From Candidatus Woykebacteria bacterium (lineage in GTDB: Bacteria; Patescibacteriota; Microgenomatia; Woykebacterales; RBG-16-39-9b): 64,000 nt of DNA. The notes under the pieces are model-generated. The model did no database searches. It was given only the letters and a program-made list of their open reading frames with translations, and had not been told where the DNA came from. The stretch is taken from positions 3,954 to 67,953 of the forward strand of contig JBBDPN010000002.1 in assembly GCA_040876265.1 (NCBI GenBank), given 5' to 3'. How positions within the stretch are numbered: position 1 is the first letter of the stretch; each line of letters opens with the position of its first letter. The position numbers and the translations under genes were made by a program. This document shows, in pieces, positions 1 through 46,270 of the stretch.

Positions 1-910
1 CCTTTCAGGCGAATCAACACAAATAGATACTCCCTCCGGTCTCTCTTCCACAGCCGATGTTGAGAAAAGTACTTCAGTTTACGACCCGAAAATAATTGGT
101 GTAGTATCCACCAATCCTTCTGGCGAAGTGCTAGGCGAAGCTGCCAAAGACTTTCTTAACAATCCGAAACCAATTGCGATCATTGGACGGGTGCCGGTGA
201 AAGTTTCTGCTGAGAATGGAGATATTGCTCCAGGAGATCCGCTGACCTCCTCCAGCACGCCTGGAGTAGCCATGAAGGCTACGCAGAGCGGCCCTATTGT
301 AGGTAAGGCGTTGGAATCCTTCGACGGGGCTCAGGACGACATAGGTCGGATAATGGTGTTTGTGAGTGTGGGATGGTTCGTAGCTCCTCTGGATTCTGGA
401 TCTGGTATGGAGGATCTAGGCAGTATGAGCAGCCTGCATATCGAGGGCCTAACATCCAACACCATCAATACTCAACTACTGTTCGTCGGTGATAGGCAGC
501 TATCCATGGGCCCAGCCGGCGAGCTGGTGGTGGACGGCGACGTGAACGTGCTGGGCGACGTCACTATCGAAGGTGATTTAAACATAGATGGAGCTGTGCT
601 TGCTAAGTCATTAAGAACTAAAAGTATAGAGATTGATATACCCGCACCGGATCCAACAACTGGCAAATCCGCCGCAACTATTGGTGACGCTACGATTGTC
701 GCTGGACAGACTGAAATAGTAGTCAAGACCACCGCTGTGAAACCTGATAGCAAGATTTTCGTCACTGCCACCAGTACAACTAGCGGCCAGATCCCCTACG
801 TAGTTGAAAAACTAGCCGGTGAAAGCTTCAAGGTGAGGATCGACTCCCCAATCGGAACAGCTATTAAGTTCGATTGGTGGATAATCCAAGTGGCTAGTAG
901 TGGCAACTGA
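1..910 (+). CDS. 3' part of a large secreted beta-helix-like surface protein (5' end outside window). Paralog of the 11378..14119 gene.
   Basis: The frame is open from nt 2 with no stop until 910. The last ~250 aa align with the C-terminus of the 11183..14119 ORF (YD..IGVVST..GRVPVKVS.ENG.I.PGD.LTSSSTPGV.MKAT). Both end in an AIKF(D/T)W(W/F)I(I/L) motif. Confidence 0.6.
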   Translation, partial: LSGESTQIDTPSGLSSTADVEKSTSVYDPKIIGVVSTNPSGEVLGEAAKDFLNNPKPIAIIGRVPVKVSAENGDIAPGDPLTSSSTPGVAMKATQSGPIVGKALESFDGAQDDIGRIMVFVSVGWFVAPLDSGSGMEDLGSMSSLHIEGLTSNTINTQLLFVGDRQLSMGPAGELVVDGDVNVLGDVTIEGDLNIDGAVLAKSLRTKSIEIDIPAPDPTTGKSAATIGDATIVAGQTEIVVKTTAVKPDSKIFVTATSTTSGQIPYVVEKLAGESFKVRIDSPIGTAIKFDWWIIQVASSGN

Positions 911-1259
911 CGTATCGTCAACTAAAGAGTTTTTCTTTAAAATGAGGTCGTTATGGAAAAAATGCTACAGCACCTTTGTACCTACTTTGGGACTAGCTGA
1001 TTATGGAGATGGTATTGAGGAGGCGGTTAAAAGAGAAATACCAGTTGATGATCCCAGCAAAGAACTGGTAACTGAGCTCCAAGTTTAATTTTCTTGATGT
1101 CCAAGCCCCCAGTAGTTAGACCGAATGAACTCTTGCGTGCTGCCTCCATCTCCGTCCATCCAAAACCAACCCCACCTGGAACTCTTCGTGCAATTCTCAA
1201 ACAAACCGAGATTTCTGCCGAAAAGCTCAAAAAGCTTCTACCGGAGTCGTCAAGCCCAT

Positions 1260-1283
1260 GACAAGGCCTGGCCCTGTCAAGGG
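1260..1283. repeat. REP-like palindromic element (REP1, half copy) GACAAGGCCTGGCCCTGTCAAGGG just 3' of RAYT gene 1
   Basis: Same 24-mer recurs at 1997-2020. Core CCCTGTCAAGGG also at 5581-5592 and 36847-36856. Confidence 0.7.
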
Positions 1284-1291
1284 TTGATAGG

Positions 1292-1981
1292 TCAGTCTTT
1301 TTCGATAAGTAGGTGTCCGAGTATTTCCTCGGGCTCCACGTCGTAGGTTTCTACAAAATCTTTATAATTGGAATATTTATTTAGATTTAAGTTACCAAGT
1401 TTGGCAGGTTCAAAAAGTGACAAGATGGGCTGTGTATTTATCCAACTAGCTTTCCTCTCCCCTATATAAATAGGGTAGCTGGAGTAAGGGTACTCTGCCA
1501 GAAAGCCTTTGGTCAAACTAGGATTTTGGTGTATATAGCGCGATAGATGCAGTAGGTAATTGTCGTTGTCAACGAGCGTGGCCCTATACGGCCCTTGGAA
1601 TAAATGACCGACCCGATTATAGCGCCTATTAAAATACATAGAGTAAGTTGTCGATAACCGCAGTAGTAACTTTTTCATTCCTTCTTTCCCCTTTTGTCGA
1701 ACCATTAAGTGAAAATGATTAGGCATCAGGCAGTAACAGAACAGATCGATTTCTCCGCTTAGTGTGGATATAGGTCTGACACGATTGGGGACAAATCCAG
1801 TGAGATCTGTCAGTGGGTGCTTTTCTGGATTGGCGTTTGGCTCCAGATAAAACTTTAACAGGTGTAGAAACACTCGATAATCTTGATCGTCTAGAAAGAT
1901 CCTTCTCTTTTCTACCCCCCGATTATAAACATGATAATGACCATTTTCTACGTATTGCTTGATCCTATTCTTTGCGGGCAT
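1292..1981 (-). CDS. REP-associated tyrosine transposase (RAYT, IS200/IS605 TnpA-like Y1 HUH transposase)
   Basis: HUH motif LMPNHFHLM, RVGHLFQGPY and catalytic-Tyr block YIHQNP match the RAYT/IS200 TnpA layout. Start taken at the internal Met (MPAKNR) because the upstream 23 codons are encoded by the REP palindrome. Confidence 0.75.
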   Translation of the reverse strand: MPAKNRIKQYVENGHYHVYNRGVEKRRIFLDDQDYRVFLHLLKFYLEPNANPEKHPLTDLTGFVPNRVRPISTLSGEIDLFCYCLMPNHFHLMVRQKGKEGMKKLLLRLSTTYSMYFNRRYNRVGHLFQGPYRATLVDNDNYLLHLSRYIHQNPSLTKGFLAEYPYSSYPIYIGERKASWINTQPILSLFEPAKLGNLNLNKYSNYKDFVETYDVEPEEILGHLLIEKD

Positions 1982-1996
1982 AATCCCATTATCTTT

Positions 1997-2047
1997 GACA
2001 AGGCCTGGCCCTGTCAAGGGCCTTGGATGACAGGGCCAGGCCTTGTC
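1997..2047. repeat. REP1 full copy: 19-bp stem palindrome GACAAGGCCTGGCCCTGTC..GACAGGGCCAGGCCTTGTC
   Basis: Perfect 19-nt inverted repeat read directly. Sits immediately 5' of RAYT gene 1 and forms a direct repeat with 1260-1283. Confidence 0.8.
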
Positions 2048-5593: not shown

Positions 5594-6644
<1,051 letters not shown>

Positions 6645-6747: not shown

Positions 6748-7461
6748 ATGGAAATAATGTTGAGAACCCTGCCAGCAATTTTAATTATTGGTTTTCTGGC
6801 CCTTATAGCTTACAACTTAGATCTTGCCTCAAAAGCGCTAGCGTTTAGCAGCAGTTCCACCAATTTTAATCTGGAGGCAGAATTTGGGATTTTTGGCGGT
6901 AGTAAATCTTCCGCTAGTTATACTCTAACCGACACTGGCGGAGGCTTTGCAGTTGGTTTTGGCAGCAGTACAAATTACGGTACTGGTAGTGGCTTTCAAT
7001 ACAATTACCAAGTGGCCGAAATACCAGAAATAATTTTCGCTATCTCCACCACCACAGTAAATCTAGGAACATTAAGTACTGCTTCGGTTTCCACCTCTTC
7101 ACACACGATCACTGTCACGGCCAACAGCAGCGGTTACAACGCCACTGTTGTAGAAGATGGCAATCTGCGCAGCGGCGGCAACGACGTAAATGATGTTTCT
7201 GGTGGCACGGTGGATGCTGGCAGTGAGGAATACGGCCTGGCCACTAGTAAATCTGGTCAAAATATCACTCAGGATACCTCTTGCGGCCCAGATCCAGACA
7301 ATGCCAGCGCTATCACTGGTTCACCCCAAACCGTCGCCAGTGCCGCTACCTCGGTGACCGGCGATTCAACAACCCTCTGCTACGCTGCTTCAATTTCCGG
7401 CACCACCCCCACCGGTTCTTACACTCACGTTTTAACTTACATAGCAACAGGTACGTTTTAA
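6748..7461 (+). CDS. Secreted Thr/Ser-rich surface protein with WxL-like C-terminal domain (paralog of 7613..8680)
   Basis: Start taken at ATG 6748 (MEIMLRTLPAILIIGFLALIA signal peptide, AxA site). The last ~100 aa are homologous to the next gene. It ends in SISGTTPTGSYTHVLTYIATGTF, like the distal Y...LTWxL motif of WxL domains. Confidence 0.5.
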   Translation: MEIMLRTLPAILIIGFLALIAYNLDLASKALAFSSSSTNFNLEAEFGIFGGSKSSASYTLTDTGGGFAVGFGSSTNYGTGSGFQYNYQVAEIPEIIFAISTTTVNLGTLSTASVSTSSHTITVTANSSGYNATVVEDGNLRSGGNDVNDVSGGTVDAGSEEYGLATSKSGQNITQDTSCGPDPDNASAITGSPQTVASAATSVTGDSTTLCYAASISGTTPTGSYTHVLTYIATGTF

Positions 7462-8760: not shown

Positions 8761-9789
8761 ATGACTGCTCAACTGTCCTACAAAAAAATAATTACCATCA
8801 TCGCTGCTACAGCGTTTCTCCTCTCAACCTTTTTTGCAACCGTCGCGGCCCAGGAAGACACAACCGAGAACGGTACCACTGCCGGCATCGGTATCCAAGT
8901 CTCCGCACCGATCTACAACTTTCAAATTGATCCAGGAGATAGCGGTCAAGAAATAATTAAAGTACGCAACGTGGGTGATAAAGCAGAGACCTTTTACCCG
9001 GAGGTTTTTGATTTTCGTGCCTCCGGCGAAACTGGTACACCGGCCTTTATCCTAGACTCCCAAGCCGAGACTTATACCTACTCACTGGCTGCCTGGATAA
9101 CTATTTCCAAGCAGCCCATTACTCTGAAACCCAACGAGTCCACCGCTCTAAACTTTACTATAAACGTACCCAAAAACGCTGAGCCGGGTGGCCGCTACGC
9201 CGGCGTACTTTTTGGCACAGCGCCTCCGACAGCTGGCGCCAACCAAGTAGCCATTTCCAACAAAGTCGGTTCTCTCGTTCTTGTTCGAGTCTCTGGAGAT
9301 GCCAAAGAAGAAGCTAGTGTCGAAGAATTTTCCACTCCCAAGAATTTTTATCGTGAAGGTCCGGTGGATTTTGTAGCTAGAATTAAAAATACCGGCAATG
9401 TCCACGTGATACCCAAAGGAAATATTGATATTAAAGACACCTTTGGTCGCAAGGTCGCCAGCTTACCGGTAAATGAAAAAAATGGCAACGTGCTACCAGA
9501 AAGCATCCGCCGCTTTGACAAAGACAGCAGCAATCTCATCTGGGAACCGGGCGGGTTCACTGTTGGCCGCTACACCGCTACTTTGGCTCTGACATACGGC
9601 GATCCAGCCAAAAATCTGACCGCCCAGGTCACTTTTTGGGTCGTACCTTGGGTACAGCTACTGATAATTGCTCTGGCAGTAATCATCGTAATACTACTGC
9701 TCATCTTCCTGGTAAAACGCTACAACAAATGGGTTGTGGAGCAGGCTGAAAAGAACCAAACCAAAGAAACTCCTCCTGCCGGCACCTAA
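8761..9789 (+). CDS. Cell-surface protein with signal peptide, Ig-like region and C-terminal TM anchor (DUF916/DUF3324-like, CscA-like architecture)
   Basis: N-terminal signal peptide. C-terminal hydrophobic helix LLIIALAVIIVILLLIFLV followed by KRYNKW. This architecture is typical of the TM-anchored member of WxL clusters. Confidence 0.45.
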   Translation: MTAQLSYKKIITIIAATAFLLSTFFATVAAQEDTTENGTTAGIGIQVSAPIYNFQIDPGDSGQEIIKVRNVGDKAETFYPEVFDFRASGETGTPAFILDSQAETYTYSLAAWITISKQPITLKPNESTALNFTINVPKNAEPGGRYAGVLFGTAPPTAGANQVAISNKVGSLVLVRVSGDAKEEASVEEFSTPKNFYREGPVDFVARIKNTGNVHVIPKGNIDIKDTFGRKVASLPVNEKNGNVLPESIRRFDKDSSNLIWEPGGFTVGRYTATLALTYGDPAKNLTAQVTFWVVPWVQLLIIALAVIIVILLLIFLVKRYNKWVVEQAEKNQTKETPPAGT

Positions 9790-10478: not shown

Positions 10479-10848
10479 TGAAATCGCAACTCAACCTTTT
10501 CTCTTAGCCGCCTTACGAGCAGCACCTCAACTTACCGGCCTTGGAATAGTCAGCGTCAAAAATTGAGGTTTTCGAGCCGACTTAAAAAGGAATTTTTCAC
10601 GTCCGATCCGCCAACTGGCGGAGAGTTTGAAAAATTAGGTGAGAAAACCGATATTTTAGCTGGAGGTTCCCGGCCGGCAGTTTTGGCTCCACCTTTGCTG
10701 TCAAAGGTGGAAAAAGAAATCTTTCCACGAATTTGACAAGCAAGCAGACTACAGGTTAAAATTAAGGGTATAAATAGGTATAATTATACCCTGCTAAGGG
10801 TACAATACGCAGGGTGTAATCCTGCGGATTATACCTTAGGACCTACCC

Positions 10849-11260
10849 ATGGAGCTGCCCAACTCTAGCTTCTCTGTAAGCGAGATCATCTCGCAGTACA
10901 GAGAGTACTTAAAATCTCATAACTACTCTACCCCCACGGTCAAAAACTATTTATCTGACCTGCGTCATCTTTTTGTTTGGCTCTCAGAACATCACGGTGA
11001 ATTTCGCTTCTTTCATATAAACGAAGCAAGTCTGCGCACTTACCGTTCTTACCTAAAAGAAAAATTTCGTGCCAGACCCTCCATCGGCGCGCGACGTCTC
11101 TCTTCCCTGCGCAAATTCCTCACTTGGGCAGCTGGGAAAAACTTCATTACACCACAGCTTTACCAGTCAGTAACGCCGGTACTTGAGGCTCTCGAGCGCG
11201 AGCCAGCTACCCCAATTACTCTGGTCCCAGGCAGCGGCATTGCTGGGCAAGCCAAAAAGG
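10849..11260 (+). pseudogene. Tyrosine recombinase/integrase N-terminal SAM-like (core-binding) domain only; catalytic domain absent
   Basis: The first ~110 aa align with the XerC/XerD N-terminal domain (TVKNYLSDLRHLFVWL ... RRLSSLRKFLTWA). After the C9 tract at 11263 the frame reads low-complexity junk to a stop at 11454. Confidence 0.5.
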
Positions 11261-11377
11261 AACCCCCCCCCTGTCCCGGACAAAATACATCAAAAAATAA
11301 TACACCATATCAAACACACTCGACCAGGCTGGTACCATCGCTACCACCAGCGGGATTGGGCCAGCACTTTGCACACC

Positions 11378-14119
11378 GTGATAATGATCCTCTTTGTGAT
11401 CGCCGTTGGATCTTTGATCCTCTACACCGAAGTGATCAAACCGCAGCTGGATAGTACTCGAGATCAATTTGCCGAAGATCTGGGCGACGTGCTAGCCGCC
11501 GCTTCCCCACCGCGGATACTTTCTTTTCAAGGTAGGCTGACAGACAGCTCTGGAGATCCGGTCACCAGTGCTACCGACGTGGTTTTCAAAATCTATGACG
11601 CGCGAACTGGCGGTACTCTGCTTTGGACATCAAAAACTTGGTCCGTAACTCCGGATTCCAATGGCATTTTCTCGGTTTGTCTTGGCGGCCAAGACACTAC
11701 TGATGACTGTCTGCTCAATGGTGTCGCTGACACCGCTATCCCCTCTACTCTATTTTCCGAAAACGCAGCTTTGTATCTTGGTGTCACCGCCGGAAGCGAC
11801 AGTGAAATGACGCCTCGCCAAAGAATCGCTTCTGTTTCTTACGCCTTAAATTCAGATACTTTGGACGGCTTCCACGGCTCCCAGTCCCCTGGTGCGAACC
11901 AAGTACCGGTGCTTGACGGCAGTGGGAACCTGGCCTTCGCCGGAGCCGCGACCATAAGTACTGGTAGTTCTGGCGCCTTAACCTTGGACTCTGCTTCTGG
12001 AACAGTTGGTCTCGGGTCTGGTGATTTGTTTTTAACAACCGGTCAGACTTCTACTTTTACTTCCAGTACCTCACTTATCACCGCGGACAATGTCTTTGTG
12101 ATTGGTGCCTCAACTGGTACTTTTGTTCAGATGGACGCTCAATCACTTCCCATCCACACGGGTGATATAACAGGTGCGGGCAAATTAATCGGCGTGCGAT
12201 CTTTGTTTGATGATATTGCTGGCAACACCAGCAGAAGGACCCTTGCATCAGTACGTAATTTTGAATCTAGTCTTACCACTATCAGCTATGCCCAGGCGGG
12301 AATCACCATAACTAACTATGCGGGTCTTTGGATAATTGACCCGGAAATGGATGGAGGTGCAAACGACACTATAATCACCAATCCTTACGGTATCTATATT
12401 GAAGATTTCAGCACTAGCGAGGGTGGAACATTTACCAACACGCCCCGCGCAATTTATCAAGCTGGTACAGATGATTACAATATCCTCGCTGGCCAGACCC
12501 GAATCGGTGGCACCAGCGACCCAGCCTCTGGCATCGAGTTGGATGTGACTGGTGACGCAAACGTATCCGGCAGTTATTACCAAGGTGGCACCCAAGGTAT
12601 TACTGCCAATTGCGGTGCCAGCGAATTCCTCCAAGACCCAACTGTCTCCGGCGGTATTGTGACTGCAGGAACCTGTGCCTCAGCTGGAGGTAGTGGCGAG
12701 AGTTTCTTTTCGTTTCTCACCAGCACCAAGACCGGCGCTGGTTATCAGTTTTCGGCGACCGGCCAGGTAAATTCAAACTCGACCGATTTTACGCCAAATA
12801 ACACCGATGGCTCGGTCCAGGCAAATTTTGCCGGCTATGTCTTTGTCACCGCCACCGTCAATTTCGAGTCATATGATGACTCCACCACAGTCACCGCAGT
12901 TGAGGTAAATGGATCCGTGGTAGCTCAAGACAGACTAAGTTACAGCAACGACGAAACAGACATAATTAATTACATCAGCCAGACTGTCACCTGGGCTGGG
13001 GCAGTGGCCGATGGCGATGATATCAGCGTGGATATTCCGACCTTGTCTGGTGCGACCGTCAACAATGATGGAACGGCGGGCGAACAAGCCGGTACACTAG
13101 TAGTCCAGAAGATAAGAACCGGGGCCGATGTAGCCGAGATGTATCCAACGGCTGATCCTACACTTAATGCAGGAGATGTGGTTAGTATAGACCCCTCTCT
13201 TCGCGGCGGAGTAAAAAAATCGGATAAACAATACGATTCACAAGTACTTGGGGTTGTCTCAACTCTTCCCAGTCTAGTGATCGGATCTCCGATTGGGACA
13301 GGTAGTGGGCCTCATCACACGGCAGTTGCTTTGACCGGTCGAGTCCCAGTGAAAGTTTCGGGTGAGAATGGGCCGATTGAGCCCGGAGACTTGCTCACTT
13401 CTTCGTCCACACCAGGTGTGGGAATGAAAGCAACCCGTGCAGGGTACGTAATCGGTCGGGCTCTCACCAGCCTCAGCTGTCCGGGCGTTAACACCTCGGA
13501 GGTGGATAGAACGGTCTCGCCAGATGGTGGCAACCCCTGCCAAGGCACGGTCGTAGTTTTCGTAGGTACCCACTACGCCAACCCCGCTCAACTGGATGAG
13601 TCTGGAGATCTATCCTCAACCTTCGATTGGGATCTGGAAAATGAAGAGAACTTGAAAGCGCTGGCGAAATTGCGAGTGGACAAAGATAACAATATAGTTA
13701 CTTCTATATCAGATGGTAGCAGGTTTATCTGGGAAAACTCTCTCGGTGAGGCAGTCGCTTGGGTAAACAGCGCTGGCGAAGCTTTTTTCCAGAAAGTAAC
13801 CGCCACTGTGGCTGATTTTGGCAAGCTGGTCTTCGGTGAGGCCGTGGTGAAAAAAGAAGCCAAAACGGCCGGGGAAGCCTCCTTCCAGACCAACGAAACC
13901 GAAGTACTGATCAGATCAGACAAAGTGACAGAAGATTCCTTGATAAATCTAACCCCAACTACCAAAACTGGTGGCGTCTCACTCTATGTCAAAGAGAAAA
14001 AGCCTGGTGAAGGCTTCGTAGTAGCTTTAGAGAGGAACTCCGGCGATCTCCCCGACCAAGCTACCGCTTCGGCAACGCAAGCAATCAAATTTACCTGGTT
14101 CATCCTCAACCAAGAATAA
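11378..14119 (+). CDS. Large (~910 aa) membrane-anchored, Gly/Thr/Ser-rich beta-helix-like surface protein with conserved C-terminal domain ending in FTWFIL
   Basis: Long ORF open from 11183. The likely start is GTG 11378 or ATG 11384, just before TM helix MILFVIAVGSLILY. The C-terminal 250 aa are paralogous to the 1..910 gene. Confidence 0.6.
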   Translation: MIMILFVIAVGSLILYTEVIKPQLDSTRDQFAEDLGDVLAAASPPRILSFQGRLTDSSGDPVTSATDVVFKIYDARTGGTLLWTSKTWSVTPDSNGIFSVCLGGQDTTDDCLLNGVADTAIPSTLFSENAALYLGVTAGSDSEMTPRQRIASVSYALNSDTLDGFHGSQSPGANQVPVLDGSGNLAFAGAATISTGSSGALTLDSASGTVGLGSGDLFLTTGQTSTFTSSTSLITADNVFVIGASTGTFVQMDAQSLPIHTGDITGAGKLIGVRSLFDDIAGNTSRRTLASVRNFESSLTTISYAQAGITITNYAGLWIIDPEMDGGANDTIITNPYGIYIEDFSTSEGGTFTNTPRAIYQAGTDDYNILAGQTRIGGTSDPASGIELDVTGDANVSGSYYQGGTQGITANCGASEFLQDPTVSGGIVTAGTCASAGGSGESFFSFLTSTKTGAGYQFSATGQVNSNSTDFTPNNTDGSVQANFAGYVFVTATVNFESYDDSTTVTAVEVNGSVVAQDRLSYSNDETDIINYISQTVTWAGAVADGDDISVDIPTLSGATVNNDGTAGEQAGTLVVQKIRTGADVAEMYPTADPTLNAGDVVSIDPSLRGGVKKSDKQYDSQVLGVVSTLPSLVIGSPIGTGSGPHHTAVALTGRVPVKVSGENGPIEPGDLLTSSSTPGVGMKATRAGYVIGRALTSLSCPGVNTSEVDRTVSPDGGNPCQGTVVVFVGTHYANPAQLDESGDLSSTFDWDLENEENLKALAKLRVDKDNNIVTSISDGSRFIWENSLGEAVAWVNSAGEAFFQKVTATVADFGKLVFGEAVVKKEAKTAGEASFQTNETEVLIRSDKVTEDSLINLTPTTKTGGVSLYVKEKKPGEGFVVALERNSGDLPDQATASATQAIKFTWFILNQE

Positions 14120-14126
14120 CAAACCT

Positions 14127-14146
14127 ACACACCAGGGGTGTCAATA
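14127..14146. repeat. REP2 palindromic element ACACACCAGGGGTGTCAATA, 3' of RAYT gene 2
   Basis: Contains hairpin ACACC-AGG-GGTGT. An identical copy lies at 14818-14837 on the other side of the RAYT gene. Confidence 0.75.
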
Positions 14147-14150
14147 TAGA

Positions 14151-14801
14151 TTAATCAAGGGTTTGATGTTTGGCAAGCTCCAAGGTTCTACCATAATCTG
14201 CTTGGTCCAAGACGAAAGATCTGTATTTATTTTTAGAAGCTCCTGGAAATAAATCCAGGGTCAATTCGGTATTCACTACACCCAAAGAATTTTTTCCTAT
14301 ATACTCCAGATACGACGACCACTCGTAGGTTGACAAATCATTAGTAAGTCCCCCTACAAGTGGGTTCAAATGAATATATCTCGAAACGTGAAGCAGTAGC
14401 TCGTCAGATTCGATTTTCACTGCTTTAAACGGCCCTTGGAACAGGTGCCCGACTCTCTTGTGTTTTGTGTTGAAATATTTTGTATAACTATTTGACAACC
14501 TGCCAATAAAAGTAGATATTCCATTTTCGGTGTTTTGCCGAAGGAGCATGTGAAAATGGTTTGGCATCAAGCAGTAAACGTAGATTTCAACCAGATTTTG
14601 AGCCGGTGTTTCGTGATCTTTTATCATTTTATGGGATTTAAAAGAAAATCTAGTTGGAACATTGGTTTTTAGATAATAAATCAAAGTATTATAAAAACGA
14701 CGATAGTCTCTTCTATCGTAAAAAATATTTCTTTTTTCTACACCCCTATTGAAAACGTGATAAATACCCCCATCTCCCAATGCTTCTTTACGATATGGCA
14801 T
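14151..14801 (-). CDS. REP-associated tyrosine transposase (RAYT) copy 2
   Basis: IYHVFNRG, YCLMPNHFHMLL (HUH), RVGHLFQGPF and YIHLNP blocks. Paralog of 1292..1981 at about 50% identity by eye. Confidence 0.75.
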   Translation of the reverse strand: MPYRKEALGDGGIYHVFNRGVEKRNIFYDRRDYRRFYNTLIYYLKTNVPTRFSFKSHKMIKDHETPAQNLVEIYVYCLMPNHFHMLLRQNTENGISTFIGRLSNSYTKYFNTKHKRVGHLFQGPFKAVKIESDELLLHVSRYIHLNPLVGGLTNDLSTYEWSSYLEYIGKNSLGVVNTELTLDLFPGASKNKYRSFVLDQADYGRTLELAKHQTLD

Positions 14802-14817
14802 ACCTATAATTTAAACT

Positions 14818-14837
14818 CACACACCAGGGGTGTCAAT
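14818..14837. repeat. REP2 palindromic element, 5' of RAYT gene 2
   Basis: CACACACCAGGGGTGTCAATA, a direct repeat of 14127-14146. Confidence 0.75.
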
Positions 14838-14904
14838 ACAACATTTTGATCAGACTCAAAACAAGGATGGTCTCCAAAAAGATAACTCTGGGGAAAACTA
14901 GCCC

Positions 14905-29165: not shown

Positions 29166-29422
29166 AACCAGGCGAGCAATAGATTTCAAATGAACAACCC
29201 AGCGTTGCTGTTGGGCTAATCATAAAAATGAGACGTGACCTTAGCCCACGACCTGGCTGACTTCAGGCAGGAGTGGTCGCAGACCATGTTACATATAAAT
29301 AGGCCGTGAATCTTAAATAGTGGAATGCTATCTGACAACGATCAAGATAGCAATGCAACTATCGCAGGTCATGGCCAACAAATGAAAAGCCCCGATTTTA
29401 ATCGGGGCTTAACATATTAATA

Positions 29423-29532
29423 CGGCCATGACCTACTTTCCCAGGCCCTGCGGACCAAGTATCATCGGCGCTGCCAGTTTTTACGACCGAGTTCGGGATG
29501 GGATCGGGTAGAGCCCTGGCGCTCCAACGGCC
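29423..29532 (-). rRNA. rrf: 5S rRNA
   Basis: The minus strand reads ...CCCGAACUCGGUCGUAAAAACUGGCAGCGCCGAUGAUACUUGG...GGGAAAGUAGGUCAUGGCCG, matching 5S conserved blocks. Ends are approximate. Confidence 0.7.
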
Positions 29533-29777
29533 TTGAGTTAGTCGTCAGTTGTAAGTTGTAAGCAACTTAACAACTAACCCAAAACCGTTTTTCTTACAAC
29601 TTAGAAATTAAATCTTATAACTAAGTCCTGCACCCTGAAAACTGGATAGAAGTATTTTGGATCTGATGTGATCTTAGAGAACGGAGCACTATTGAAACAA
29701 AGATTTCAATAGTAGCGTAGTTCTCGCAGATCGCAACTGATCCTAAGGATCTTTTACGATCTGTTAGTACGGCTTAG

Positions 29778-32660
<2,883 letters not shown>

Positions 32661-32856
32661 CAGATAACAGTTACCAAGACGTTAACTGCTATCTGACCTT
32701 CTATCCAGTTTTTAAGGTACCATCTTAGATCAAAGATATAAGATGTTAGATGTAAGATATCTTAAAGTCTGACATCTTAAATCTGACATCCATACCTTGG
32801 CTTGCCATGAGCAAGACTTCGACGTTGAGCTCAGTCGAACCGCGCAGAGCGTCGAA

Positions 32857-32933
32857 TGGTGGACCTGGCCGGATTCGAACCGGCGACCTCTGCCTTGCAA
32901 AGGCAGCGCTCTAACCAACTGAGCCACAGGCCC
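32857..32933 (-). tRNA. tRNA-Ala (anticodon UGC) in the 16S-23S spacer
   Basis: Reverse complement GGGCCTGTGGCTCAGTTGGTTAGAGCGCTGCCTTTGCAAGGCAGAGGTCGCCGGTTCGAATCCGGCCAGGTCCACCA. G3:U70 present. Anticodon loop is UUUGCAA. Confidence 0.85.
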
Positions 32934-33241
32934 GCGCAAGCACAAGGCGCTATTCTAGCAATATTAAATTTTGGTGTCTAGAGGGAACTTTAGGTTGGAG
33001 GTGAATTACCTACGCTTCTACGAAGTGAGTAAGAAACAAATATAAGTTTTGCGTAAATCACTTGCCTAAAATCCCTCCTGTGAATGATCCTTCGACGCTG
33101 CTCAGGATCACCCCGAGCTTGCCGAAGGGTGAGAATAATTCACTCATCAACCGCAATATAGCACCAATTTGGGCTTCCGTCAAGGTAGAGACAGACCAGT
33201 TAGCACTCTTGAAAAGTGCTTTGCTAATTTTTAGCCCACGC

Positions 33242-33300
33242 TAGTGGTCGCAGCACGCAAGAGTATCTAAATAATGAGTTTCTAACGAAATTATTTAGTT
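33242..33300 (-). promoter_or_regulatory. Hairpin (CTAAATAAT..ATTATTTAG) followed by box TAYTCTTGCG..GCGACCACTA, spacer copy; boxB/boxA-like antitermination candidate
   Basis: The same two-part element recurs at 37357-37435 upstream of 16S. It lies upstream of tRNA-Ala/23S in the sense orientation. Confidence 0.4.
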
Positions 33301-33380
33301 ACGGAGCGGGTTTAGCAACAGCGCAGCACGCGGAGTAGCTGGCTTTGAGCGCTAGCGAAACGGCATAAGCTACGAGCGGG

Positions 33381-33734
33381 CTATCTGTGGCTTTCGTTGA
33401 GGATCTTCCAGTTCCAGTTTCTTTTTTTGTTGGAGCCGATTTTCTTGATGATGGCTTTTTCGAGGTCAATTTTCAATGATCCAGAAAGATGTAGTAATCG
33501 TTGGAGTACGTCGCCAAGCTCTTCTTCAAAACCACCTTTGCCTTTAATTTTTTTGTGGCGATAAGCCTCATAAGCTTCGGAGATTTCGCTGTGAAGCAAG
33601 GCTATCTTTTCCGGCACGCTTATATCTTTCCGACTTGTGCCAAAACCTTTTTCCCGGGCTTGTTCCATAACGAGTTCCGTTAATTGTTTCAGGGTAAGAT
33701 TTTTCACGAAGGTATTATATACCCGTAAATCCAA
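33381..33734 (-). CDS. MazG-like nucleoside triphosphate pyrophosphohydrolase domain protein, encoded inside the rRNA spacer
   Basis: KIALLHSEISEAYEAYR ... EELGDVLQRLLHL matches the MazG/NTP-PPase helix pair with the EExxE/ExxD metal ligands. Same strand as the rRNAs. Confidence 0.55.
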   Translation of the reverse strand: MDLRVYNTFVKNLTLKQLTELVMEQAREKGFGTSRKDISVPEKIALLHSEISEAYEAYRHKKIKGKGGFEEELGDVLQRLLHLSGSLKIDLEKAIIKKIGSNKKRNWNWKILNESHR

Positions 33735-34009
33735 TCGCGAACTTGGTCTGGATCATAAAAACTTCCATTAAGAATAAAATAATGTGTCTTGGGAAATTCA
33801 AGAATAGTGTCATTAATTAATTCAAGCTCGTTTTCTATCGAACCAAAAAAAGATTCGCAGGGTCTTACCCTGTGAGTAAAATGATACCGCCCAAGAGAGT
33901 GTATTTTGATAGTCATATGATTCTCCATGTGAGAAATTTTGGTACCCATAACTATATTATACAAATCTTATCTGACCCATTGAGTTCATCAAAAAAAAAG
34001 GGGGGGGGA

Positions 34010-34384
34010 TTAAAACAAGGTTTCGGGTTTGACCCTGTGTTTAATCAAGCATTCATTGTAAAAAGCGTTTATTTCATCTGGTGTTTTCAACCCACCTTTT
34101 AACTGGATGTAGCTATAATAATCTGTAATGCCACCAACGTTAGGTATCAATTCCGGCTCGTAAATAGCTGCATTCAAGGGTCTGTTGTCAGCAATTTTCG
34201 CTTTTTTTCTAAATTCGCTTATACAGATTTGCCTTACCTCCACTGGTCTCCATTCAAACCAATAGAAACTACCAATCAAAAATAATGTTATTGAGGCTAA
34301 AGATACTGATAAAAAGATGGTCTTAGATTTGTTCATAAATATTTTTGAAAATATGGTGGGCGCGGATGGGATAAACCGCTCCAT
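34010..34384 (-). CDS. Small membrane-anchored hypothetical protein inside the rRNA spacer
   Basis: 124-aa ORF with one N-terminal TM helix (TIFLSVSLASITLFLIGSFYWF). On the same strand as the rRNAs. No recognisable family. Confidence 0.3.
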   Translation of the reverse strand: MERFIPSAPTIFSKIFMNKSKTIFLSVSLASITLFLIGSFYWFEWRPVEVRQICISEFRKKAKIADNRPLNAAIYEPELIPNVGGITDYYSYIQLKGGLKTPDEINAFYNECLIKHRVKPETLF

Positions 34385-34501
34385 AATTCGAAACTTTCAG
34401 TTTCTTAAGTATTCCCGCGTTTTGCGACCACGCTAAGCGTGGGCTACGAACCTGGGACCCCTACATTAGACGCAACTAAAGCTGCTATCTTTTGCGATTC
34501 A

Positions 34502-34577
34502 TGGTGCGCGCGCATGGATTCGAACCATGGACCCCTACATTATCAGTGTAGTGCTCTAACCACTGAGCTACGCGCGC
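34502..34577 (-). tRNA. tRNA-Ile (anticodon GAU) in the 16S-23S spacer
   Basis: Reverse complement GCGCGCGTAGCTCAGTGGTTAGAGCACTACACTGATAATGTAGGGGTCCATGGTTCGAATCCATGCGCGCGCACCA. Anticodon loop is CUGAUAA. Confidence 0.85.
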
Positions 34578-34827
34578 AAAAGTGCACCGCTTCGCGTTTC
34601 GCTTTTTCTTACGCAAAAGTCATAGTTGTGCTCTAACCACTGAGCTATCCGCCCAGATTTTCAAAATACAGATCAACGCTCGTACCACTGACCTGCCTGC
34701 CGGCAGGCAGGGCTACGCGCCCAAATCGAGTTCAAATTCTAGCATAAACGCAAAAACCCCGCAACGTACGGGGTTTTCCAATTAATGTAATCCTTCGATC
34801 ATCTCAGGATTTTGCTTCGCTCAACAA

Positions 34828-34852
34828 CTCAACATGTAGCAAGAACGAACGT
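34828..34852 (-). promoter_or_regulatory. 3' half of the 16S processing stem (pairs with 36640-36662)
   Basis: CAACATGTAGCAAGAAC here is the exact reverse complement of GTTCTTGCTACATGTTG at 36644-36660. This is the classic long-range stem bracketing 16S for RNase III. Confidence 0.6.
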
Positions 34853-34996
34853 CCTTCCACCAAAGTGGTGGGTGACTTAGTCTTGCCGTGAGAGCAAGAC
34901 CATAGAGCCATAAATATCGTAGCTCTGATTGCTCCTTTTGTCTCCCATACTTGGCAACCCTCCGATTTAATCGGAGTTTACCTAAATATAAAAAGA

Positions 34997-36490
<1,494 letters not shown>

Positions 36491-36864
36491 AAGATCGCTC
36501 CGTACTTCCCCACTCTTTGTAAAGGGCGGGTTCGGTACTCTCGCGTTCTGCGCTCTGCAAAGCAGAGCTTAGAAAAGTTGATCAGTTGTTCAGAATTGAC
36601 GTTCTTTTCCTACTTACATTGTCCTTGCGGCAACTGTAAGAAGGGTTCTTGCTACATGTTGAATTGTCCTCCGATTTGATCGGAGAGCAATTTGTTAAAT
36701 TGTCAAAGTGCTTGATTGGTATGTTCTCCAACGAAAAAGAGCTGGCACAAACCGAGCTCTTGCAAAGGGTCCAAATGTGCACTCAAAAATAAGTTTACAT
36801 ACCAATTCTCATTTCCGAACTCATTTTAGTTTAAAAATTATACTCTGTCAAGGGACAGCGGGTA

Positions 36865-37281
36865 TTATTTCGCCAGGTATTTCTTCTTTATCATCTTGGC
36901 CTCGTATTCGATCGATTGCTGGGGAATATTTCGCCGATATTGGTCCAAAAAGAAAGCTACCCAACCGGCGGAAATAAGGACAAAAACCAGCTCAAACGCC
37001 CGCACTCCCAAAAAATCAATTCCCTGCCACCTAAATAAACTAAATATTGCTCCCAGGCTGCCAAGAATCAGTAGCCCAACCGCTAAAGGGCGGAAGATTT
37101 TGTTTTTTGGTGGGTAGTGGCCAACCACAATTCGGTTGTAAACGAGGAACGCTATACCAAGCACGACTATTACAAAGAAGATACCCAGAAGCAATATAAG
37201 TTCGGAGATGGAACCCACACCGGGATTACGTAACCAAAATGCAAATTGTAAAAATGGTATATCTTTGATAGTGTTTAACAT
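36865..37281 (-). CDS. Small polytopic membrane protein (3-4 TM) in the rRNA operon leader
   Basis: 138-aa ORF, strongly hydrophobic throughout. Lies between the upstream hairpin/box element (37357-37435) and 16S. Confidence 0.4.
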   Translation of the reverse strand: MLNTIKDIPFLQFAFWLRNPGVGSISELILLLGIFFVIVVLGIAFLVYNRIVVGHYPPKNKIFRPLAVGLLILGSLGAIFSLFRWQGIDFLGVRAFELVFVLISAGWVAFFLDQYRRNIPQQSIEYEAKMIKKKYLAK

Positions 37282-37356
37282 ATATTGTAGTGGTTAGGTT
37301 ATATATAACCTAAATATATCTTTCTAATGTATTAGATAACTTTCCTTAGCCATTGT

Positions 37357-37435
37357 TAGTGGTCGCGGAGCGCAAGAATACCTAAATCATCGAATTCAAC
37401 CCCGATAAAATCGGGGCCAACGAGATTATTTAGGT
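37357..37435 (-). promoter_or_regulatory. Hairpin + box element, leader copy (hairpin loop carries CCCCGATAAAATCGGGG)
   Basis: TAGTGGTCGCGGAGCGCAAGAATACCTAAATCAT...GAGATTATTTAGGTA matches the copy at 33242-33300. Confidence 0.4.
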
Positions 37436-43052: not shown

Positions 43053-43072
43053 GACCCAATTTTATCATATCC

Positions 43073-43252
43073 GCCTTACGAGCACAGCCGTCTTGGACTG
43101 GCAAAAATGCGAAGAGGAAACGGAAACTGAACCTGAGCTTGTCGAAGGTGAATTTCCGAGGAAGTCCCGAGTATGTTTGCCTCAGTTCAAAGGCTAGCGC
43201 AGTCGGCGGCCGCTTTGGTGCCACCTTTGCGGCCAAAGGTGGCAAAGAAAAT
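43073..43252. repeat. ~180-nt repeat element, copy A (conserved 55-nt block + variable middle + CCACCTTTGCGGCCAAAGGTGG hairpin)
   Basis: Near-identical 55-mer GAGGAAACGGAAACTGAACCTGAGCTTGTCGAAGGTGAATTTCCGAGGAAGTCCC and terminal hairpin are shared with 46093-46270. Confidence 0.7.
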
Positions 43253-46092: not shown

Positions 46093-46270
46093 TCGCTGTG
46101 CGAGCACGGCGTTTTTGAACTTGCTGAAAAGCAGAGAGGAAACTGGAACTGAACCTGAGCTTGTCGAAGGTGAATTCCAGAGGAAGTCCCAAAGCTTTTC
46201 AGCTTAGTCCAACAGTCAGCACAGCCCAGCGACAGTTTTGGTTCCACCTTTGCTGCCAAAGGTGGAAACA
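46093..46270. repeat. ~180-nt repeat element, copy B
   Basis: GAGGAAACTGGAACTGAACCTGAGCTTGTCGAAGGTGAATTCCAGAGGAAGTCCC ... TTTTGGTTCCACCTTTGCTGCCAAAGGTGGAAA. Immediately 5' (minus sense) of the EndoQ-like gene. Confidence 0.7.

Follow-up and report, generated by a model that had tools for sequence, protein, structure and literature searches.

The stretch of DNA analysed here, referred to as the window, comprises 64,000 nt (positions 3,954-67,953 of contig JBBDPN010000002.1) of a metagenome-assembled genome (MAG) of Candidatus Woykebacteria, which belongs to the Candidate Phyla Radiation (CPR, Patescibacteria). Its minus strand carries RAYT2, a gene for a Y1/HUH protein resembling the REP-associated tyrosine transposases (RAYTs; REP, repetitive extragenic palindrome), which is bracketed by two copies of a short hairpin repeat, REP2. 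The gene and the two repeat copies make up a unit of 718 bp (14121-14838). A diverged paralog, RAYT1, lies near the start of the window and has a repeat of its own, REP1. A first-pass annotation had described RAYT2 as a second RAYT-like gene with its own, different hairpin, and this was borne out, as the Y1/HUH gene is intact and REP2 is distinct from REP1. The features of the unit and its immediate neighbour are as follows:

14151-14801, minus strand: RAYT2, intact class-2 RAYT-like Y1/HUH gene of 216 amino acids (aa), assigned by Pfam Y1_Tnp, motifs and fold
14813-14838, minus strand: REP2 upstream copy; the gene strand reads TATTGACACCCCTGGTGTGTGAGTTT, with the hairpin ACACC-CCT-GGTGT
14121-14146, minus strand: REP2 downstream copy, in direct orientation, identified by repeat comparison
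14808-14836, minus strand: predicted sigma-70-type promoter of RAYT2, with -35 TTGACA at 14836-14831, a 17-nt spacer and -10 TAAATT at 14813-14808
11396-14119, plus strand: 'giant 2', a fibre-like surface protein gene convergent with RAYT2, 907 aa as called on a Logan contig

We could read about 75 kb of this genome, that is, the window and 11 kb of extra flank from Logan contigs (17, 8.5 and 35 kb) recovered by exact-protein match, which is about a quarter of the 302-kb NCBI contig. Relatives were located at at least 595 loci in species-representative genomes, and 80 of these loci were fetched (labels such as L002-L081).

RAYT2 matched the Pfam model Y1_Tnp (PF01797) with an E value of 5.7e-10 and 39.8 bits, above the gathering cut-off of 23, and its HUH motif NHFH and tyrosine motif RYIHLNP are intact. 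Both motifs, with the catalytic residues H82-F-H84 and Y142, were invariant in an alignment of 23 family members. The class-2 Y...NP motif is thus present in RYIHLNP, and its counterpart in RAYT1 reads RYIHQNP. When the AlphaFold2 model of RAYT2 (pLDDT 86.5, pTM 0.83) was searched with Foldseek, the best match was E. coli TnpAREP (4er8_A; E 1.4e-6, TM 0.68), followed by the IS608 and ISDra2 transposases, the probability being 1.00 for each of 4er8, 2a6m and 2xm3. A profile of the 23-member alignment searched against PDB likewise returned TnpAREP (4er8) as best match (E 0.002) and ISDra2 TnpA as the next. Judged by sequence and modelled fold, RAYT2 and RAYT1 are class-2 (RAYT-type) Y1 HUH proteins. 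The motifs NHFH, LFQG, YIHLNP and WSSY of RAYT2 are those listed for TnpAY1 subclass 2.1 in Table 1 of Quentin et al. 2018 (PMC6006769), and by its motifs RAYT2 appears closest to this subclass (Group 1 RAYT/TIRYT). The CPR proteins have an additional loop of about 25 aa that is poorly modelled, and RAYT2 has a short helical tail. Pfam gave no match in RAYT2 to a distal C-terminal helix-turn-helix (HTH) domain (Bac_DnaA_C, HTH_23, HTH_28), and the model ends in two short helices; a Legionella plasmid protein which is 35% identical to RAYT2 has the subclass-2.1 motifs together with a C-terminal HTH domain. A tblastn search of plasmids with RAYT2 yielded distant matches annotated only as 'transposase' (28-39% identity), which served the motif comparison alone. 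Against the NCBIfam model REP_Tyr_transpos (NF047646) RAYT2 scored 54.2 bits, under the RAYT cut-off of 80.

Two exact copies of the 19-mer CACACCAGGGGTGTCAATA are present in the window, on the plus strand in both cases (14128-14146 and 14820-14838; chance expectation 0.01), and the repeat widens to 26 nt with 2 mismatches (20 nt exact) at 14121-14146 and 14813-14838. The two copies are direct, with the same loop and the same flanks on one strand, and no third copy was found in the window with up to 3 mismatches. The downstream copy occupies the 31-nt gap between the convergent stops of RAYT2 (14151) and the fibre-like gene (14119), and the upstream copy ends 18 nt before the RAYT2 ATG. Within the upstream copy lies the predicted -35 box of RAYT2, and the predicted -10 box ends 6 nt before the ATG, a leaderless-type geometry. 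The string GGGGTGTC of REP2 fits only 7 of 8 positions of GGGGWSAS, the consensus often carried by the terminal inverted repeats (TIRs) of TnpAY1 subclass 2.1. A conserved GT[AG]G head is absent around both REP2 copies and around REP1. Rfam gave no match at REP1 or REP2, no T-run follows the REP2 hairpin on either strand, and REP2 was not called as a terminator. We also considered the 26-nt repeat as a target-site duplication or att site and ruled this out, as the hairpin structure is conserved and its stems covary in relatives.

The RAYT2 homologues fall into more than 6000 clusters, nearly all of about 215 aa and 50-60% identical (the best non-self homologue being 59% identical to RAYT2), and the named ones come from Daviesbacteria and other CPR groups. 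We analysed 85 CPR genes for which both flanks were available by comparing the 100 nt upstream with the 100 nt downstream, permuted partners serving as controls. An exact shared stretch of at least 12 nt was found for 70 of the 85 genes, against 3 of 419 controls in direct and 0 of 419 in inverted orientation. Likewise, a perfect hairpin with a stem of 5 bp or more was shared by the two flanks in 40 of the 85 genes, against 21 of 832 controls. These 40 hairpins use 22 different 5-bp stems and have a 3-nt loop in 36 cases; therefore the structure is conserved while its sequence covaries with the gene. Protein and hairpin thus co-vary across relatives: RAYT2-like genes have hairpins of the form [T/A]CACC-NNN-GGTG[T/A], and RAYT1-like genes those of ACAAGG..CCTTGT types. 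Prediction placed a sigma-70-like promoter within 60 nt of the start for 38 of the 84 relatives scanned and for 11 of 840 shuffled sequences; in 35 of these 38 relatives the predicted -10 box ends 5-9 nt before the ATG, again a leaderless-type geometry. Many relatives also have a half-site in the -35 region, a repeat of the hairpin's 5' arm. The downstream flank holds the whole module in direct orientation, or else the hairpin together with an inverted half-site, a TIR-like arrangement. The hairpin-bracketed layout of the gene is standard for a very large CPR family, and the RAYT2 locus itself is an ordinary member of it, the features that surprised the first-pass annotation being common in CPR or inherited by synteny.

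A third, intragenic copy of the hairpin, in frame, was noticed in distant members of the family (L056 10437, L073 10448, L066 10411, L068 1711, L078 2188, L059 2487, L065 10103 and L029 10182), either directly after the YIHLNP motif or in a variable N-terminal loop. These hairpins recall the intragenic REPs reported for TnpAY1 subclass 2.4 (PMC6006769). Many family records are titled 'uncultured Gammaproteobacteria', 'Nanoarchaeia archaeon' or 'Bathyarchaeia archaeon' (L002, L006, L007, L009, L058, L076 and others) despite their CPR-like neighbourhoods, and are probably mislabelled bins.

The second gene of the window and its surroundings offer a comparison within the same genome, the relevant features being the following:

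1292-1981, minus strand: RAYT1, 229-aa Y1 paralog of a different and, by sequence, ancient subfamily, assigned by Pfam Y1_Tnp
1259-1283, minus strand: REP1 downstream copy, folding at -11.7 kcal/mol (z -3.3)
1996-2047, minus strand: REP1 upstream doublet, with the proximal copy (1996-2020) direct to the downstream copy and the distal copy (2028-2047) inverted
2017-1988, minus strand: predicted RAYT1 promoter, TTGACA-18-GATAAT, 11 of 12 matches
1-910, plus strand: 3' end of 'giant 1', convergent with RAYT1, at least 1611 aa on Logan contig L082

The open reading frame (ORF) of RAYT1 was annotated as 1292-2050, and the family alignment points to the ATG at 1981 as its likely start. RAYT1 scored 37.9 bits against Pfam Y1_Tnp and 33.9 bits against the NCBIfam RAYT model (cut-off 80). 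REP1, a 25-nt repeat TGACAAGGCCTGGCCCTGTCAAGGG which differs from REP2, has direct copies at 1259 and 1996 and the inverted copy at 2028-2047. The claim of cognate repeats in direct orientation on both sides thus holds for both genes, with the addition of this inverted third copy in REP1. The upstream doublet forms a REPIN-like long hairpin (-26.6 kcal/mol, z -6.7) and overlaps divergent predicted promoters, those of RAYT1 and of an O-antigen-ligase-like gene; the predicted -35 box of RAYT1 sits in the proximal REP1 copy and the -10 box ends 6 nt before the ATG.

Alignment of the two proteins confirmed that the window holds two diverged RAYT paralogs within 13 kb, RAYT1 and RAYT2 being 40-44% identical (BLASTP E 3e-50). 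Among the relatives, 17 are closer to RAYT1 and 74 closer to RAYT2, and sequence comparison places the two genes in anciently separated subfamilies. The first-pass annotation had held two such families in one small genome to be unusual; however, at least 8 of the fetched loci contain a pair of diverged paralogs within 10 kb, two or three paralogs are present in several MAGs, and on a 1.13-Mb contig among the relatives two lie at a distance of 19 kb. The literature already reports genomes of other phyla with several distinct RAYTs (PMC6006769, PMC5581495). Paralogs of the same genome are 32-64% identical and include no near-identical pairs. It had also been suggested that a whole unit of giant gene plus RAYT was duplicated. 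We rejected this on the subfamily assignment: RAYT1 is 64% identical to its syntenic counterpart in relative L076 and RAYT2 59% identical to its closest protein from another genome, so that each is closer to other genomes than to the other RAYT of the window. The ancient separation of the subfamilies and the synteny of the RAYT1 locus in L076 both argue against unit duplication. Comparison of the orthologous REP1 and L076 hairpins showed compensatory changes in the apical stem, CC..GG versus AG..CT.

REP had further been taken as a dispersed repeat. In the 75 kb of readable sequence no solo REP1 or REP2 was found with up to 3 mismatches, and the exact REP2 18-mer had no match in a genome-contig collection which does not include the source MAG. 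Neither hairpin family shows spread, and both appear confined to the gene flanks in the sequence read; in most related loci, too, the cognate motif is confined to the two gene flanks within 10 kb on either side. A few relatives differ. One locus (L012) has 5 cognate copies in 20 kb (solo at 1500, 7508, 17252 and 18078), a REP-like density, another (L002) has 4 in 13 kb (solo at 5950 and 7401), and L062, L073 and L056 have a few. In L031 a solo module at 6950-7080 resembles a downstream end joined to an upstream end, with the promoter-like part retained. The family can thus seed REP-like elements, as observed in these relatives. RAYT homologues with flank repeats that are not genome-wide were noted by Nunvar et al. 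(PMC2817692), and TIRtrons with few or no dispersed copies by Di Nocera et al.

We consider it probable that the 718-bp unit is a member of a very large, mostly CPR family of Y1 HUH genes with private hairpins (5-10 bp stem, 3-nt loop), and that it is a resident gene. Its behaviour is that of a resident gene, inherited vertically and domesticated or relict, rather than that of a proliferating insertion sequence, because it is of low copy number, its paralogs are deeply diverged and the position of RAYT1 is conserved in a relative. No near-identical copy of the unit was found in the window, the 80 loci or the protein database, and a scan for the family on viral contigs found no relatives. RAYTs have been described as vertically inherited, housekeeping-like genes (PMC5581495), and the divergence between RAYT1 and its L076 counterpart fits this. 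Signs of local mobility are a cassette flipped relative to the same neighbours in L071 and cassettes at other positions of the same neighbourhood in L056, L067 and L007. By analogy with the TnpAREP-REP complex (PDB 4ER8) and IS608, the enzyme would recognise its own hairpin on single-stranded DNA and would cut and rejoin beside it; such cutting and rejoining could keep the two flank copies identical by homogenisation, and might occasionally seed solo copies or flip the cassette, as in some relatives. The upstream hairpin is probably also an operator for autoregulation of the leaderless transcript, which we propose because it overlaps the -35 box of the gene's own promoter.

Several points weigh against this reading. 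Hairpin binding, cleavage and autoregulation are what we infer by analogy. The REP2 stem is weak, with 5 bp, a 3-nt loop and -3.1 kcal/mol (z -0.9 to -1.65, not significant), and as the folding energy is unremarkable the reality of the hairpin rests on the comparative data. RAYT2 is without the distal HTH domain of subclass 2.1 and falls under the curated RAYT cut-off, so its placement is one by motifs and fold. The sequence read is about 75 kb, while the NCBI contig measures 302 kb, and dispersed REP copies may lie elsewhere in the genome. Lastly, among 52 related loci of at least 12 kb (from L002-L081), 44 had a clear GC skew, and in 17 of these 44 the RAYT lies on the G-rich strand, so that there is no preference for the lagging-strand template as in IS608; an IS608-like placement of the sense strand on the lagging-strand template was rejected on this count. 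As a separate observation, 63% of the long-ORF length lies on the G-rich strand, and the RAYT genes may thus be less co-oriented with replication than average genes.

A true REPtron, in which RAYT2 mobilises REP2 copies dispersed elsewhere in the genome and the flank copies are merely local members, would agree with the RAYT-like fold and the Y...NP motif, with the REP-like hairpin density of L012 and L002, and with the fact that only about a quarter of the contig was visible. We nevertheless regard it as rather unlikely, since solo copies are lacking from the 75 kb read, the cognate repeat keeps to the gene flanks in most related loci and the NCBIfam RAYT score is under its cut-off. The canonical REPtron layout assumed at first does not apply either, as REP2 lacks a GT[AG]G head and has its copies in direct instead of inverted orientation (PMC2817692, PMC6006769). 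The same-strand hairpins might instead be the left and right ends of a minimal autonomous IS200-like element, the whole 718-bp unit transposing with a preference for the 3' flanks of long surface-protein genes. The strand of the hairpins, as in IS608/IS200, and the size near that of IS200 speak for such an element, as do the flipped cassettes of L071 and L056, the L031 module resembling joined ends, and an independent case in L069, where a RAYT is convergent with a 3296-aa fibre gene and has a hairpin in the 60-nt gap. It is unlikely, however, as the Y motif is YIHLNP (class 2) and not the Y...Q of IS200 transposases (PMC6006769), near-identical copies and viral carriers were not found in the searches described above, strand bias with respect to GC skew is missing, and the orthologous position of RAYT1 is conserved with a divergence equal to that of its neighbours.

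It seems very improbable that the repeats are unrelated to the enzyme, whether as common regulatory signals (a promoter, terminator or insulator) or as a duplication by chance. The upstream copy does hold a good -35 box, the downstream copy lies between convergent stops, where a terminator would be expected, and the REP2 stem is thermodynamically unremarkable; but the chance expectation of the repeat is 0.01, 70 of 85 relatives are bracketed by gene-specific sequences with covarying stems, no T-run or terminator call was obtained, and solo copies in relatives retain the full module. We also entertain, as a distinctly doubtful extension, that the hairpin modules of this CPR family are portable promoter/operator cassettes. 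The Y1 enzyme would copy or invert a unit made up of the hairpin with its TTGACA -35 and -10 boxes and would thereby rewire the transcription of neighbouring genes, with a preference for the ends of long fibre/adhesin genes. Hints in this direction are the retention of the promoter part in solo modules (L002 5950, L031 6991), the overlap of the REP1 doublet with divergent predicted promoters, and an excess, over a uniform spread, of RAYTs at 0.5 kb or less from the 3' end of a fibre gene. If this were true, the fibre/adhesin genes affected would be the ones that CPR episymbionts would use on their hosts.

RAYT/REP is the textbook case of a domesticated bacterial transposase, and the ultra-small CPR genomes are thought to be poor in selfish DNA. 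To our knowledge, work on RAYT/REP systems has been nearly confined to Proteobacteria. In CPR the principle recurs as a huge family, with the clusters and species-representative loci counted above. Our literature searches returned no paper that connects RAYT or Y1 transposases to CPR, and CPR genomes are not mentioned by Quentin et al. 2018 (PMC6006769). Among the systems described, E. coli TnpAREP (YafM) with its REPtron and the RAYTs of Nunvar (subclasses 2.2 and 2.5) are like RAYT2 in the class-2 Y...NP motif and provide its best structural match (4er8); they are likewise of low copy number with diverged paralogs, each gene being bracketed by a co-evolving hairpin, and RAYT1 shares their REPIN-like inverted doublet. 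RAYT2 differs from them in its NCBIfam score (54 against a cut-off of 80), its extra loop of about 25 aa and its short helical tail, and the CPR hairpins are short and have no GT[AG]G head; REP2 is direct, and the 75 kb available contains no genome-wide type of dispersal. Nunvar et al. 2010 (PMC2817692) defined RAYTs as flanked by two inverted REPs, a definition which includes RAYT1 through its distal copy at 2028-2047 and excludes RAYT2 with its direct copies.

TnpAY1 subclass 2.1 (Quentin et al. 2018, PMC6006769) corresponds to the Group 1 RAYT of Bertels et al. 2017 and probably to the 'TIRYT' of Di Nocera et al. 2013. RAYT2 shares with it the motifs NH[YF]H, FQ, Y[IV]HLNP and the proximal SS; this subclass, too, has about two diverged copies per genome and flank repeats which are often gene-restricted, and the flanks of many CPR relatives are also arranged as terminal inverted repeats. 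On the other hand, subclass 2.1 has the distal HTH domain which RAYT2 is without, and no REP-like structures were found near its genes (PMC6006769), whereas the CPR genes have clear cognate hairpins. In RAYT2 and the CPR family we therefore meet a new combination: subclass-2.1-like motifs, a lost HTH tail, cognate hairpins, frequent direct orientation and promoter overlap. The family is set apart by its short 3-nt-loop hairpins without a GTAG head, its often-direct flank copies and an upstream copy placed on a leaderless-type promoter. Its thousands of natural protein-hairpin pairs would be a good resource for learning how Y1 enzymes read hairpins.

IS608 and IS200 have their end hairpins on the same strand, and the IS200 unit is of similar size. 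RAYT2 shares with these elements (subclass 1.1) the HUH/Tyr fold, same-strand hairpins at both ends and a unit of about 0.7 kb. It differs in its class-2 Y motif (YIHLNP) and in H-F-H, against Y...Q and an HUH with V or I (PMC6006769), and is about 65 aa longer; moreover, the CPR unit is not multicopy in the sequence read, has no tnpB, and its RAYT1 representative is conserved in position.

The genes next to the two RAYTs had been described as paralogous giant genes with a WxL-like C-terminus, each abutted convergently by its RAYT. They are indeed paralogous, as an alignment of their C-terminal 300 aa or so (ORF 11183-14119 against the ORF that ends at 910) gave 33% identity (E 2e-30). Giant 1 has at least 1611 aa, and giant 2 was called at 907 aa. 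The convergent abutment is found at RAYT2 (31-nt gap) and not at RAYT1, whose stop codon is 381 nt from that of giant 1, with small ORFs in between; giant 2 counts here as a neighbour of RAYT2 rather than as an established functional component of the unit. A WxL domain could not be substantiated in either gene: Pfam gave no match at E <= 0.01, and the only signals were a sub-threshold K1-lyase_C and a weak Bdello_MAT_N. The sole WxL-related hint in the region is a sub-threshold Pfam WxLIP_PGBD match (25 bits, cut-off 27.3) in a gene at 8761-9789 on the plus strand, upstream of the fibre-like gene.

The L076 locus is syntenic with the window over about 9 kb and keeps the position of RAYT1. The shared genes encode a Big_7 protein, three unnamed products, Obg, a metallo-beta-lactamase-fold protein and a Wzy_C/TPR protein, followed by a RAYT1-type gene and a fibre-gene remnant; the neighbour proteins are 50-69% identical. 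By this sequence comparison the proximity of RAYT1 to a fibre gene is inherited synteny and not a repeated insertion. Within 10 kb of RAYT genes there are nine homologues of the fibre C-terminus, their distances being 0.03, 0.06, 0.17, 0.38, 0.4, 2.0, 2.9, 7 and 8.3 kb, with five at less than 0.5 kb. This is far from uniform, also when orthologous cases are discounted, although most relatives have no such neighbour. The pairing with the same kind of gene, which had seemed striking, thus comes down to a modest and weakly supported enrichment of RAYT genes near this surface-gene family, and for RAYT1 it was inherited. The simplest reading is a conserved, rearrangement-prone cell-surface neighbourhood with long-resident RAYT genes, in which Rho, a LysM-M23 peptidase, the O-antigen-ligase-like Wzy_C/TPR protein and the fibre genes are found.

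Some minor observations were made in the same region. An ORF at 10849-11454 (plus strand) encodes the SAM-like N-terminal domain of a phage-type integrase but not the catalytic one, and shares about 59 nt with the start of the fibre-like gene. Two small ORFs at 900-1261 (plus strand) lie between the giant-1 stop and REP1, where the Logan gene caller has a 48-aa gene; the second (1094-1261) ends in a 'PPGTLRAILKQTEIS' stretch that may resemble HicA toxins.

Elsewhere in the window an intergenic element of 40-190 nt occurs three times on the plus strand, at 10497-10713, 43060-43245 and 46094-46268. At the core of this element, for which Rfam gave no match, is a hairpin of 10-11 bp, TCCACCTTTGC(T/G)G(T/C)CAAAGGTGGA. 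Its stem is similar to that of the hairpins (TTCCACC..GGTGGAA) found on both sides of RAYT genes in other genomes of CPR, but no RAYT adjoins the copies in the window; these may represent orphan REPs, a small RNA or a leader element. Finally, the rRNA operon and its surroundings (29387-37416) contain eight hairpins of the form CYCCGAT-N3-4-ATCGGRG; some fall within the 16S and 23S matches, one directly follows the 5S gene and others are in the spacers.

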